From a virus (taxonomy: Duplodnaviria > Caudoviricetes), in IMG/VR virus record IMGVR_UViG_3300014590_000001, positions 1 through 64,000 of that record: a stretch of 64,000 bases of DNA; one strand, 5' to 3'. Position 1 is the first letter of the stretch. Each line of letters opens with the position of its first letter. A program made the translations under genes and the position numbers. The notes under the pieces were generated by a model that made no database searches, had not been told where the DNA came from, and worked only from the letters and a program-made list of their open reading frames with translations. Shown in pieces: positions 44,310 through 48,317 of this stretch.

Positions 44310-46091
44310 ATGCCACTTCTTCCTAAACAATCTCGAATGATTTCGGATCTCGGAATTTTTCCGCGCTCGATTTCAAAAGTCGGTAATCATTTTATCGGAC
44401 ACAACAATCGCGCTGCCTATGTTTGGCACAAAGGCGATATTCAGGAAATTTGTCCGGGCGATATTGTCCACCACGAAAGTCTTAGCGCTTCAGTTGTTGA
44501 GCGTATTTCCGGCCTGAATTTTGCTGGCACTCGCGACGACAATAAAGCCGTGTTCATGTCTGTGAGTAACAGTCTCCATCTTGATCTGGTTCCTGAAAAA
44601 CAAGAATCCATTTCATACGATATGCAGACTGCTCTGCTTGCTGCGCAAGAGTATGCAAAGAACAATCAACGCATTCACGATATTCTGGATATGTGTTCAG
44701 AAAGTGCTGCGCCAAAGTATCTGAAGTACACCGGAAAGAAACTTGCTGTTGATGACGCTTCCGATGAATACGATCTGGAACTGGAGAAAGGCGACTTAAT
44801 CAAGCTGACCTATCTCAACAAAGACCGTTACGATCTGCGCCTGAAAGACAGTCCTCGCATTCAGTTTATTGTTCGCGGTCATGAAATTGCGCAGAACATT
44901 ATGGGTGCGCTGGAATTCACTGCGCCGTTCGGTCAAATCTCCGATCAGAAAACAAATAAGTTCGAATACGTTGGCGAAATCAGCAAGAAACTTCTCGCGC
45001 CAAATATTGCGAAAGGCACTGTTATTCTTATGTCGCGTAAGAAACATTACTTCGCACATAACCTCGCTGTGCCAATTGAAAGCTGGATGAATTCACAAAC
45101 TCTTCGCGAAGTTATGAATAGCATTAAAGCAGGTAAAGAGCCTGTGAGCTATGTGAAAGGTAAAGCGATCAAAACAAGCGCGAAGATTGCGCCGATGGGT
45201 CAGGCAGAACCTCTGCCGAAACTGGCTAATCCGAAAAAACTTTCGAGCGCAGGACAGCCGCGAAACGTTGCAACTGTTTACGGTGCATTCTTCCCTGTGT
45301 CGTCCAGTACGCCGAATCGTAGCCGTGTTGTTTTTGCTGACTCGATGGCAAAACTTCAGACGTTAGTGCGTGATATTATTTCGACGTACACTACTCCGGT
45401 AGACTACAGCCTGTTCACCACGTTAAGCACTGACGAAAACTATAAAGCTGCATCAAAGAATAAAGTTGTTATCAAAACAACTCCAATTCTTGCCAGCACG
45501 TATCACGTTACGCAGACAGTTAAAATGGCTCCTGCCGTGCTGCATCCAACTTTCGTTGAACCGAAAACTGGTGTGCGTCCTATCGACTTCCCTGTGTATG
45601 AAGGACAAGAGCAAAAGGTTATCGAATTCTTCCGTCGTCAAATCGAAGAAGGTTTCTTTAACACTGGCGTTCGTTTAGCACATCCGCAACCGGACACTGG
45701 AATTCGTTTTAGCGCTCCGCAGATTGATGACGTTATTTACGATCAGATTATCGGTGTTGCTCGTCGCATTACTTCTTTCTTGCTGCATGAAGGTGTGCCT
45801 TTGAAGAAAGGCGGCGTATCGTTAGCGCGTGGTAAGAAAGCCGCAGAGATTCGTTTTAATCTGCCACCTGTTACGGGCGAACAGAAAGCAAGTATCGAAA
45901 AACTTGTTTCGGATTACCCAACTCTGAATGCTCCTATCTATGAGACAATCAGACCGAAACAGCCAACGGTAGAAATTCTCAGTGTTTCTATCCACACTGG
46001 TAAAGTTACTGCTCGTGCGCAGCGTGGCCCAAGTCTGTTCGGCAATCCGTTCGAAGTTCTTTATTCGAATGTTAAGCGAAAAAATTTCTAA
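44310..46091 (+). CDS. Probable internal head protein with S-x-S-rich N-terminal region
   Basis: AAGGA RBS; ESLSA, MSVSN, ESISY, CSESA in the first ~135 aa, then the 'YLKYTG...EKGDLI' module. Confidence 0.55.
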   Translation: MPLLPKQSRMISDLGIFPRSISKVGNHFIGHNNRAAYVWHKGDIQEICPGDIVHHESLSASVVERISGLNFAGTRDDNKAVFMSVSNSLHLDLVPEKQESISYDMQTALLAAQEYAKNNQRIHDILDMCSESAAPKYLKYTGKKLAVDDASDEYDLELEKGDLIKLTYLNKDRYDLRLKDSPRIQFIVRGHEIAQNIMGALEFTAPFGQISDQKTNKFEYVGEISKKLLAPNIAKGTVILMSRKKHYFAHNLAVPIESWMNSQTLREVMNSIKAGKEPVSYVKGKAIKTSAKIAPMGQAEPLPKLANPKKLSSAGQPRNVATVYGAFFPVSSSTPNRSRVVFADSMAKLQTLVRDIISTYTTPVDYSLFTTLSTDENYKAASKNKVVIKTTPILASTYHVTQTVKMAPAVLHPTFVEPKTGVRPIDFPVYEGQEQKVIEFFRRQIEEGFFNTGVRLAHPQPDTGIRFSAPQIDDVIYDQIIGVARRITSFLLHEGVPLKKGGVSLARGKKAAEIRFNLPPVTGEQKASIEKLVSDYPTLNAPIYETIRPKQPTVEILSVSIHTGKVTARAQRGPSLFGNPFEVLYSNVKRKNF

Positions 46092-46095
46092 GTAA

Positions 46096-46107
46096 ATCTG
46101 TAAATAG
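46096..46107 (+). promoter_or_regulatory. Candidate promoter motif ATCTGTAAATAG
   Basis: Identical 12-mer at 47795-47806, each at the head of a structured non-coding block; ATCTGTAAAG variants at 46205 and 46649. Confidence 0.5.
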
Positions 46108-47330
46108 TAATTATAGGTAGAGCGGAAATTCTATGACTTCTTGTTTCCGTTCTACCATAGAACCCTAGCCAGTTGGATATAAAAACTTTCTGTGAAGAAA
46201 CGATATCTGTAAAGTGGGTAATAACACTGGCAGCCATTCCATGTATAAGGCTCACAAGCCGCTTCCTACCTACAGGGGAATGAGTTAATGCAATCCACCT
46301 CGCTCTGGCGATGCGTTAACTGTTAGCTGACAGCGCGAAAGAATGCCGTTTAAACTTACACTTTCACTGTGAGTTTAAACGGGGAATCTTTCAGAACTCC
46401 CTGTCAATATGACGACAAAGTTTGCAAATGTCTTGCTGCATTTTTCATAAACTATTTTCTACTCTAGCGGATTCGTAACGGGAAGTAGTTTAGCGAACTT
46501 TGGGAATACGATTTAGTGAGTAACATAACATCCGCAGAATGAAGATAGACCCGCCTTAGTCTAGGCTTCGTTCCCTAGTTTGTTTAGACCTGATTCAGTG
46601 GGGAAACGGGAAACGAACTTTGTATAGATTCCGTATAATCATTTTGAAATCTGTAAAGTGATTATACTGGATCACTGTGCTGTTCCGGTGTTCCGGTGGT
46701 GTTGTAGTTGTCGTTCATATCTGCGCCATTGTGTTGTGCTGACTAGCGGTTGGCGAAAGCACTTCACTTAAAGTTTTAAACATTCGCTGAAGTTATCGGT
46801 GTCTCAACCCCCGCAGACCGTGGATAGATTCCTGTTCAGAAAATTTATTTTTAGTTCTCGGATAAATTTTCCCAGCAGCCCTTGCTAGGCCACGTAGAGT
46901 AAGTAGTTTCAAACCTATTTGAAGTTGGGAACGGGGAAACGAAAACTCTTTAGTCAAAAGCTCTTACTGTTGCATGGCTTCTGTCAAAACAAAATCAGAT
47001 CTTCAATTCCATTATTGGATTCGAGTATCCCTAAGCGGTGACTTCCGTATTCGAATCTTGTTAGTAGGAAGTTTAAATGTGGGTGCCTTTAGGTTCCATA
47101 GGATACCGTTCACGGTAAACAAATAACAGCCGCAGACCAAAGATCATGACTGCAATTTATGTTCTCCATAGCATAACTTTTGCGATACTCCTATGAGGCT
47201 TTGTTTTGAAACTTTTTAGACCTGCTTCAGTTGGGAATCGGGAAGAAGTTTCAAATTGTCGGACGAGATTGGAAAGACAACTCGTATTACGTTTTCCTCT
47301 CACATTAGCGTAATACGGGATGACACCAAT
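46108..47330 (+). ncRNA. Large structured non-coding RNA/leader containing three tandem pseudoknotted units
   Basis: 1.25 kb with no credible ORF in a gene-dense genome; many long stems whose mismatches are G.U on the + strand; conserved CTA(A)GCGG, CCGCAGA, AGGC, A[G/A]ACCT and GT[T/G]GGGAA(N)CGGG repeated three times. Confidence 0.7.
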
Positions 47331-47343
47331 TTGAGGAAACATC

Positions 47344-47601
47344 ATGTCGGGAAAAGATTTGGAATTTCCAAAAGGCGCACAAGGCGTAGTGCGCAAAGTA
47401 AATCCATTGACAACGTTCTTCATGCCTGAACGTTATCGTGATAACCCAGCGAAAGCTAAAGTTGCAGCGCAGTTTCAAACTCTCGCGTATGCTCTTGACC
47501 GCGATATTGAAGACAGCGCAGAAAAGAGTACAGCGATTCGCAAACTGATTGAAGCGCAAGATTGTATTTTCCGCGCAATCGATCTTAATCCTGATTTCTA
47601 A
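47344..47601 (+). CDS. Acb2/Tad1-like helical-hairpin protein (candidate immune-signal sponge)
   Basis: GAGGAAA RBS; 85 aa; 'P..FF....','F..LA..L','EKSTAIRKLIEAQDC..RAI...PDF' resembles the Acb2-family C-terminal helix (recalled, not searched). Confidence 0.6.
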   Translation: MSGKDLEFPKGAQGVVRKVNPLTTFFMPERYRDNPAKAKVAAQFQTLAYALDRDIEDSAEKSTAIRKLIEAQDCIFRAIDLNPDF

Positions 47602-47776: not shown

Positions 47777-47806
47777 TTGGTTTTACGGCGGTTAATCTGT
47801 AAATAG

Positions 47807-48277
47807 AATTTGTGGTAACACAAATAGGCATAAGGAACTCTGAGAGTGAAAGAACTCTATCTTCTTATGTCGCTACTGATGTGCTTGTGGCAAGCGAGTA
47901 GATCAGGCATTGTAAAACAATGTGCGAGCACACCGGAAACGCTCGCGTCCAGCACTGCCGTGGTGTACGGCTATGCGCACGTTCGGGGGATGTGGGACAG
48001 CGACAAACACTTGCCAAGATGAAAATTTAAATTTGATTGCGGTACTGGCGGGTAACTCCGCTTATTCGGACAAGCAAAATTTCAGACGTGAGATTTTGTG
48101 CCGCCTCCAAATGGCGCGGCGATTCTGTCGGATGCAACACGGCGAACAACTGCTTTTCTTTGCCCAAGCTATATACCGATTGCTGCGCCGTTATTCTATA
48201 GGCTGCGCGTCAAACCTTTTAAAATCCGCATGAAAAATTTGATACGAAAACGGGTGGCCTTTGTGCTGCCCGTTTTT
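47807..48277 (+). ncRNA. Second structured non-coding RNA (~470 nt)
   Basis: Starts right after ATCTGTAAATAG, ends in a terminator; near-continuous series of hairpins; overlapping ORFs lack an RBS. Confidence 0.65.
48247..48277 (+). terminator. Rho-independent terminator
   Basis: AAAACGGGTGGC-ctttgt-GCTGCCCGTTTTT. Confidence 0.85.
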
Positions 48278-48317
48278 GTTTCTGCCACTAATTTAACCAA
48301 TAAGAAAGGAGAATAAA

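Follow-up and report, generated by a model that had tools for sequence, protein, structure and literature searches.

The first 64,000 nucleotides (nt) of the IMG/VR virus record IMGVR_UViG_3300014590_000001 (Caudoviricetes) were analysed here and are referred to as the window. The complete record is a phage genome of 256,657 bp with direct terminal repeats, and the window is its first part. A gene for a protein of 593 amino acids (aa) and an open reading frame (ORF) of 85 aa flank a long gap on its 5' and 3' sides, respectively, and PAAR and baseplate genes follow next on the same strand. According to the ORF list, no frame longer than 57 aa is present within 46092–47343, and ARAGORN found no transfer RNA (tRNA) or tmRNA gene in the window. 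A preliminary description of the locus had placed in this gap three tandem copies of a pseudoknotted RNA motif of no recognised family. We conclude that a phage promoter motif heads the gap 46097–47343, that the gap is a single transcription unit, and that it encodes one type of RNA in four tandem modules, each of which folds independently; the modules are designated U0, U1, U2, and U3 (Table 1).

The three copies described earlier (U1–U3) are real, and all the strings by which they had been recognised are present at their reported places. The window contains three instances of the pattern CCGCAGA-N5-GAT, where 0.68 would be expected, and its relaxed form CCGCAGR-N5-GAT occurs three times in the 256.6-kb genome, always on the + strand and within the array (0 for the reversed control). 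GGGAA(N)CGGG also has three occurrences, in the array only, with 0.29 expected and 0 in 100 shuffles. The units had been said to share little overall sequence, and their global pairwise identity is in fact at or just above that of shuffled copies. The count of three was too low, however, as a fourth and diverged unit (U0) lies upstream. The positions of the units hold, while their limits were redrawn to those given in Table 1.

Table 1 Positions of the array elements and of neighbouring features (window numbering unless indicated).
Feature	Position	Strand	Sequence or remark
593-aa protein gene	44310–46091		Directly before array; conserved
Promoter-like motif	46097–46106	+	TCTGTAAATA; head of array, after stop codon of 593-aa gene
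5' hairpin	46116–46156	+	GGUAGAGCGGAAA/UUUCCGUUCUACC; ahead of U0; read from sequence
U0, diverged fourth module	46165–46392	+	
U0 loop strand and extension	46165–46172; 46176–46180; 46203–46207		CUA-GCCAG; extension GAUAU; AUAUC
U0 bulge and 3' strand	46208–46226; 46227–46233		UGUAAAGUGGGUAAUAACA; CUGGC-AG
U0 P3	46236–46281		AUUCC-A-UGUA...UACA-GG-GGAAU
U0 P4	46337–46392		GAAAGA/UCUUUC around long P5 stem
U1	46447–46619	+	
U1 P1	46447–46459 with 46480–46492		
U1 P2	46464–46475 with 46509–46511 and 46530–46535		CUA-GCGGAU-UCG with CGA and AUCCGC; bulge 46512–46529
U1 P3	46541–46569		GAAG-A-UAGAC...GUCUA-GG-CUUC
U1 P4	46577–46585 with 46611–46619		AGA at 46586–46588
U1 P5	46589–46591 with 46608–46610		CCU with GGG; loop 46592–46607
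Spacer hairpin	46633–46667	+	GUAUAAUCA/UGAUUAUAC, loop with UCUGUAAA; between U1 and U2
U2	46736–46940	+	
U2 P1	46736–46740 with 46758–46762		GUGCU/AGCAC
U2 P2	46743–46757 with 46783–46790 and 46811–46814		CUA-GCGG-UUGGCGAA with UUCGCUGA and CCGC; bulge 46791–46810
U2 P3	46820–46893		GUGG-A-UAG...CUA-GG-CCAC
U2 3' hairpin	46906–46940		P4 GUUUC/GAAAC, AAA, P5 CCU/GGG
U3	47017–47255	+	
U3 P1	47017–47028 with 47047–47057		
U3 P2	47031–47046 with 47067–47072 and 47130–47133		CUAA-GCGG-UGACUUCC with GGAAGU and CCGC
U3 P3	47138–47203		CAAAG-A-UCAUG...UAUGA-GG-CUUUG
U3 3' hairpin	47205–47255		P4, AGA, P5, loop
Array-end hairpin	47268–47281	+	GGAAAGA loop (AUUG-GAAAGA-CAAC)
Array tail	47281–47343	+	Hairpin CUCGUAUUACG/CGUAAUACGGG, then ACACCAAUUUGAGG with ribosome-binding site of 85-aa gene
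85-aa ORF	47344–47601		Right after array
Second non-coding stretch (~480 nt)	47796–48283		Opens with TCTGTAAATA
Strong terminator	48248–48283		AAACGGGUGGCC...GCUGCCCGUUUUUGUUUCU; end of second non-coding stretch, just 5' of PAAR gene
Copies of TCTGTAAATA	Window 46097, 47796; genome 121490, 138435, 194997, 209322, 244739, 252974		
Small genes overlying the RNAs in other loci	L013 4656–4805; L014 4753–4914; L017 4265–4741; L012 5401–5541; L022 146–573; L023 2942–3085; L152 3265–3795		

The neighbouring 593-aa protein has 57 matching records in all. It is approximately 70% identical in the Dickeya phages JA11, JA13, JA29, and JA33 (Salmondvirus) and shows approximately 40–46% identity in the Yersinia phage fHe-Yen9-02 and the Erwinia/Dickeya jumbo phages Yoloswag, Y3, Alexandra, AD1, and the SNUABM series. 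The RNA units were parsed by hand in the window and in twelve relatives, and all have one shared architecture. From the 5' end, a module consists of the first strand of P1, n..CUA, GCGG with an extension of 3–8 nt, the second strand of P1, a variable apical part, the complement of the extension, a bulge UUAAA(G)AGUGnAUnAACnn, CCGC, AG(R)nn, P3a, an A, a P3b hairpin (U..P3b..A), GG, P3a', and a linker. The 3' end is formed by P4, A(G/A/U)A, P5 (CYY), a loop of 16–18 nt (..AGU..KGGG..AC), P5' (GRG), and P4'. The pairing of the loop GCGG with CCGC, which had been proposed earlier, is indeed a pseudoknot, but the contact is longer than was thought. It is the inner end of P2, a long-range helix of 7–12 bp that is broken by a conserved asymmetric bulge of 17–19 nt (UUAAAGAGUGnAUnAAC) and prolonged by 3–8 bp beyond it. 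P2 encloses the 3' strand of P1, which makes the fold an H-type pseudoknot. The N5-GAT and AGGC blocks are conserved as described; they are not separate elements but the two strands of P3, which has a conserved 1×2 internal loop with A opposite GG. The 3' hairpin is composed of P4, an AGA bulge, a 3-bp P5, and a conserved GGG-containing loop. Between modules the stems have diverged, and the loops, the bulge, and the junction nucleotides are kept.

Two units depart from this scheme. In U0, CUAGCCAG pairs with CUGGCAG and the downstream tail is AAUAACACUGGCAGCC; the top of its P2 is a plain hairpin, and U0 is thus without a pseudoknot. The bulge of U3 is split into two parts (47073–47084 and 47122–47129) by an inserted hairpin region.

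The preliminary description had argued for selection on a + strand RNA structure from conserved loops and swapped stems, and strong covariation among homologues bears this out in all helices across 13 related jumbo phages. In an alignment of the 3' hairpin from 23 units (A1), 76.4% of the cells are paired, as compared with 40–48% when one strand is slid, and the covariation score is 0.577 against 0.13–0.20 for the slid alignments; none of 500 shuffles equalled this. All 23 units of A1 have P5 paired, as C-G, U-A, or U-G. The full pseudoknotted model of eight orthologous units (A2) is 87.1% paired versus 32–44% when slid, and 25 of its 44 pairs are altered on both sides. Shuffles as good as A2 numbered 0/500 on four of the five whole-structure measures and 6/500 for further pair types. 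For each strand, duplex energies were also computed with its own partner and with those of other, non-orthologous units. The own and cross-unit values were −7.8 and −5.1 kcal/mol for the P2 extension, −14.9 and −7.3 kcal/mol for P1, and −10.4 and −6.8 kcal/mol for P3, and in each case none of 10,000 permutations was as good.

The pseudoknot core itself varies with its pairing kept. It is GCGG/CCGC in most units, GUGG/CCAC in Yoloswag, GCAGG/CCUGC in Alexandra and SNUABM36, and GCUGG/CCAGC in SNUABM25, and the equivalent core in U0 of the window phage, JA13, and JA29 is GCCAG/CUGGC. The U0 extension covaries between the window phage and JA13 (GAUAU/AUAUC versus GAUUC/GAAUC), and the orthologue of U2 in JA29 carries CGCGAA/UUCGCG, which is a compensatory change. 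P1 and P3 were recovered unaided by RNAalifold on orthologues. The same program also lengthened P1 in a way that would sequester GCGG and closed the bulge with GUCU/AGAC; neither feature was adopted, as both show one-sided changes only or are broken in Y3. The minimum-energy fold of U3 contains P2, P3, and the 3' hairpin. The structural case rests on covariation, not on energy.

Simple hairpins accompany the modules. At the place of the 5' hairpin of the window (Table 1), JA13 and JA29 have a different hairpin. The spacer hairpin between U1 and U2 is kept in both phages with one pair changed on both sides; in JA13 (GUAUGUUCA/UGAAUAUAC), one A-U pair is swapped to U-A and another A-U pair is changed to G-U. 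The string TCTGTAAAGTG at 46650 was considered as a second promoter, a reading made uncertain by its place in the loop of this conserved spacer hairpin. The array-end hairpin is present as a single copy after the last unit also in JA13, JA29, Yoloswag, and fHe-Yen9-02, with differing stems.

A covariance model of the 3' hairpin built from jumbo-phage units (R1) matched at exactly three places of the complete genome, each of them within the array and on the + strand, with E values of 1e-8 to 1e-6 and scores of 42.6 (U1), 36.1 (U2), and 39.8 bits (U3). In the loci of 12 relatives, R1 gave 23 matches, all of which are on the + strand and in the syntenic gap, and it also matched fHe-Yen9-02, where the array spans the start of the record. 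The relatives have approximately two to four copies each, always in the syntenic gap behind the phage promoter motif. Specifically, U0 is accompanied by one further unit in JA13, two in JA29, and three in the window phage, and two to three or more units are found in Yoloswag, Y3, AD1, and the Alexandra group. Within IMG/VR, a pattern scan for the 3' hairpin loop returned only two chance matches, which lie inside a coding region, and a search by way of the 593-aa neighbour found no relative. In GenBank, small "hypothetical protein" genes overlie these RNAs (in several cases on the other strand) in SNUABM17, SNUABM36, SNUABM22, SNUABM5, fHe-Yen9-02, and the Pseudomonas phage phiAH14a (gene p55) (Table 1). 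These small genes are probably spurious.

The array begins a few bases 3' of the promoter-like motif TCTGTAAATA, which we take to resemble the T4 late promoter TATAAATA. The motif is kept in the relatives read, with the version ACTGTAAATA in fHe-Yen9-02. The genome has 8 copies of it, and the reversed control gives 1. Of the six copies read at other places in the genome, five are located 25–45 nt ahead of a start codon, frequently right behind the stop codon of the preceding gene. Parts of the stretch are held by 20 public runs, 8 of which are recorded as RNA. U0, U1, and U2–U3 are covered by contigs from RNA libraries that belong to three studies, of seed, wastewater, and food-fermentation samples. 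One RNA-type library contains unit-sized contigs (46127–46348, 46390–46625, and 46677–47261), the contigs of the seed run end near unit borders, and those of three RNA-type runs start at 46677–46708, just 3' of the spacer hairpin. Two food-fermentation RNA runs have no contig on 44000–46612 or 47417–47818, and neither these gaps nor the contig ends are evidence of level or processing. The presence of the units in RNA-library contigs removes the objection, raised in the preliminary description, that the region might lack transcription, while it falls short of proof of transcription.

The relation of the modules to catalogued RNA families was examined with Rfam 15. No family reached its gathering score in the window or in the loci of the twelve relatives. 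The one relevant match at E ≤10 was that of RF03044 (Proteo-phage-1) to U0, with 16 bits against a cut-off of 42 bits (E = 0.32), and at this threshold RF03044 had none in the Alexandra gap. The earlier statement that the family is unrecognised is not supported in full: by score the units are not members of RF03044, but the order of elements matches RF03044 plus an unmodelled 3' extension. The alignment of RF03044 on U0 is out of register, with CUAGCCAG of U0 placed on the first hairpin of the Rfam model. RF03044 is a candidate small RNA (sRNA) motif from a 2017 survey, with no function assigned (Weinberg et al., 2017; PMC5737381), and Proteo-phage-1 is not discussed in the main text of that survey. 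In the full-text literature searched, "Proteo-phage-1" is not mentioned and no description of a tandem array of this RNA in jumbo phages was found; a paper on 10,000 phage structured RNAs makes no mention of jumbo or Erwinia phages.

Members of RF03044 were gathered by an IMG/VR pattern scan, which yielded at least 120 contigs, mostly of 20–60 kb. All seven that were checked are genuine members with scores of 65–79 bits. The 5' part of a member reads CACUG-au-UA-GCCGG-UAG-ua-CAGUG-CUA-cgg-AAAAACA-CCGGC-AG-CC-CGCGC-A-CCCUG...CAGGG-U-GG-CGCG-AGAC, and the 3' part reads CGGCG-AGA-CUGGUG-CAUUGGGG-UGCCAG-CGCUG...GUGGGAAGACAC...CACCUAUUCAGGGCCUC...GGGGCCUUUU. The P1 loop UA-GCCGG is paired to AAC-N-CCGGC-AG, and P3 has an internal loop with one base (C or A) opposite GG. 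The 3' parts contain P4-AGA-P5 with a GGGG loop, a hairpin with the loop GGAAAGAC, and, in most members read, an intrinsic terminator, ahead of which tRNA genes or tRNA-like pieces are sometimes inserted. The RF03044 model, with its 82 nt, covers only the front of this RNA (IMG/VR loci L026–L131, e.g. L058:1783-1932:-), and the unmodelled remainder is conserved and covarying. This indicates a late-leader RNA of approximately 250–300 nt, of which the Proteo-phage-1 motif makes up no more than the 5' third. In 22 members, the extended structure is 89% paired versus 28–50% when slid, 19 of 40 pairs are changed on both sides, and 0/500 shuffles were as good. The pseudoknot core is invariant among those 22 members, so the jumbo-phage units supply the compensatory evidence for the pseudoknot that was missing there.

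The modules and the Proteo-phage-1 RNAs are alike in element order through P1, the loop pairing, the P3 GG loop, P4-AGA-P5, and the GGAAAGAC-loop hairpin, and both are found at the head of late genes. The second hairpin of RF03044, with its UAGCCGG loop and the tail AAaAACaCCGGCAGCC, is present in variant form in the units, as CUA(A)GCGG with AAC-NN-CCGCAGA in U1–U3 and as CUAGCCAG with AAUAACACUGGCAGCC in U0. A GGAAAGA loop on other stems also follows the module in Proteo-phage-1 RNAs, and their CACCUAUUCAGG, which is similar by eye to ACACCAAUUUGAGG of the array tail, enters the terminator stem instead. On the other hand, the first hairpin of Proteo-phage-1 (GCCAGG...CCUGGA) is absent from U1–U3, and the 5' hairpin ahead of U0 is unrelated to it. 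The bulge of the units is 17–19 nt long with an AGUG block, whereas approximately eight A-rich nucleotides are found in Proteo-phage-1, and the unit P5 has 3 bp and a loop of 16–18 nt in place of 6 bp and an 8-nt loop. The loci here contain two to four tandem modules in virulent jumbo phages, while the Proteo-phage-1 loci contain one module in lambdoid (pro)phages. Judged from sequence and predicted pairing, the module is probably an enlarged relative of the Proteo-phage-1 RNA.

In the lambdoid loci checked, genes for NinB, NinG, and an unnamed protein of 190–270 aa (at times with a small ORF) precede the RNA, which is followed by holin, spanin, or terminase genes. Neither the unnamed protein nor its small neighbour had a match in Pfam, NCBIfam, or PDB sequences. 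A language-model search placed the unnamed protein near Q-antiterminator clusters (best 0.91, with 13% of the cluster members carrying the family), which is a lead only. The jumbo phage has no homologue of the unnamed protein or of the small ORF product.

Tentatively, we favour the reading that the array yields a stable, multi-copy folded RNA that binds a conserved host factor in trans, by dose, as a possibility rather than an assignment. Each module would be a stable folded particle, and its conserved unpaired surfaces would bind a factor common to Pseudomonas-type and enterobacterial hosts. The RNA would be a decoy or sponge whose effect scales with its amount, and the jumbo phages would raise the dose by placing two to four modules on one transcript. 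We favour this reading because the copy number varies in a dose-like manner between close relatives, because the stems have diverged with the unpaired surfaces kept, as for independent modules that are each under selection, and because the ORFs downstream of the array are unrelated between genera. In addition, the RNA ends in a terminator of its own in most lambdoid versions read, as an sRNA gene does, and the two groups of carriers have no phage protein in common. Sponges of the CsrB/RsmZ type and the ToxI RNA of Pectobacterium similarly have several modules per transcript and copy numbers that vary between relatives, but their units are simple hairpins or small pseudoknots of 20–40 nt, whereas multi-domain folds of 170–240 nt are found here. 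Neither a GGA-hairpin periodicity nor a ToxN-like gene was seen beside the array. The stable RNAs C and D of T4 were considered as kin and dropped, as rnaC and rnaD have none of the signature elements of the units.

Several observations weigh against a host-directed RNA acting in trans and against its extension to the lambdoid RNAs. The binding partner is neither known nor predicted. The array has no terminator of its own and leads straight into a ribosome-binding site, which would suit a cis-acting leader just as well. With z = −1.35, the minimum-energy fold of U3 has no unusual stability. The contigs give neither strand, ends, level, nor processing of the RNA, and DNA may also occur in RNA libraries. 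The match of U0 is the best one of RF03044 in the whole genome, and its score is low. A model of the extended Proteo-phage-1 RNA (R2) found nothing significant in the window and the loci of 10 relatives; its best relevant match (E = 2.1), which is local and weak, is to the 3' hairpin of the last JA29 unit, aligned as proposed. In the reverse direction, R1 had no match in 40 Proteo-phage-1 loci. The units are thus not filed as RF03044 members but as an enlarged, multiplied relative or analogue, with homology not demonstrable by score.

The main rival, which is doubtful but worth weighing, is that the modules form the cis-acting leader of a late operon and either act on the transcribing polymerase, in processive antitermination as with the put RNAs of HK022, or protect the downstream late mRNA from decay. 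The array directly follows the promoter motif, on the same strand it precedes small ORFs as well as the PAAR and baseplate genes, a terminator is present further downstream before the PAAR gene (Table 1), and the lambdoid relative occupies the place of the lambda pR'-tR' late leader ("6S"), between a probable Q-like regulator and the lysis genes, with a terminator in most members read. The jumbo-phage array differs from that leader in its length of approximately 1.2 kb and in having no terminator at its end, and no requirement for a conserved fold is known for the lambda leader. Like putL and putR, the array is a promoter-proximal phage leader RNA, and no phage protein might be needed for it to act on the host polymerase. 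The put RNAs are two simple hairpins of approximately 70 nt at early promoters, and no likeness in sequence or fold to the modules is evident, although no put model is among the Rfam matches and no comparison aimed at it was made. Four diverged copies have no obvious benefit in cis, the downstream ORFs vary between genera, and the lambdoid carriers probably own a Q-like protein antiterminator already, although this is a lead only.

A ribozyme array that cuts the transcript into unit-length stable RNAs by self-cleavage or processing would account for the clustering of invariant nucleotides in the junctions, in the bulge, and around the pseudoknot, as in small ribozymes, and for the unit-sized contigs in one RNA-type library. 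It is nonetheless improbable: no Rfam ribozyme family (hammerhead, twister, twister-sister, pistol, hatchet, or HDV-like) matched at the gathering score or even at E ≤10, contig ends do not reveal RNA ends, and no conserved candidate cleavage dinucleotide was identified. We give equally little credence to a riboswitch reading, in which tandem aptamers would respond to a host metabolite or signal and thereby control the late genes. The complex pseudoknotted fold with conserved unpaired nucleotides and the position in a 5' leader would suit such aptamers, and tandem aptamers are known in other classes, but no expression platform overlaps the units, no terminators or ribosome-binding sites lie between them, and in the lambdoid members a hairpin and linker separate the fold from the terminator. 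Moreover, the downstream genes are mutually unrelated and not metabolic, and no Rfam riboswitch matched at the gathering score or at E ≤10. Tandem repeats in a long non-coding gap can also be DNA sites, such as an origin, a packaging site, or a recombination site, or may be similar by chance. Such an explanation is very improbable indeed, as the stems stay paired by way of G-U pairs and compensatory changes that hold for the + strand alone, every model match is on that strand, the unit identity barely differs from that of shuffled copies, and the units are present in RNA-library contigs. A broader proposal, which we consider unlikely though more credible than the ribozyme array or the riboswitch as such, is a new functional RNA class common to unrelated phages of Proteobacteria, of which Proteo-phage-1 would be the first recognised fragment and the jumbo-phage form an array of two to four modules. 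The RNA would be either a self-processing ribozyme or a decoy that neutralises a conserved host protein (e.g. a nuclease or an immune effector); within this proposal, the decoy is favoured because the copy-number variation is dose-like.

The locus thus adds a large RNA of several domains, pseudoknotted and strongly covarying, that Rfam does not contain as such and that is found in relatives sampled across a clade of ~250-kb phages of Erwinia, Dickeya, and Yersinia, several of which are cultured. Rfam does not detect the units by score, and the papers searched describe no such tandem array for jumbo phages, while the core logic matches that of the catalogued motif RF03044. RNAs so conserved in architecture have usually proved to act as ribozymes or ligand sensors or together with major cell machinery. 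The natural copy-number series of two units in JA13, three in JA29, and four in the window phage is a ready experiment on the role of the RNA.

The proteins encoded beside the array offer few clues. The 593-aa protein has KMPT-N (residues 136–197) as its only domain match and belongs to PHROG 32352, to which no function is assigned. Its candidacy as an RNA partner of the Ro60/TROVE type was dropped on account of this sole match. The 85-aa ORF has a weak match to Pfam Acb2_Tad1_hairpin (E = 0.019, 15.6 bits against a cut-off of 27 bits) and also matches PHROGs of unassigned function; a role for it as an anti-defence sponge is conjectural. The second non-coding stretch, which lies between this ORF and the PAAR gene, is represented by RNA-library contigs at 47819–48252, 47992–48299, 48056–48228, and 48000–48142. 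The terminator at its end is kept in Alexandra, AD1, Y3, and SNUABM25.

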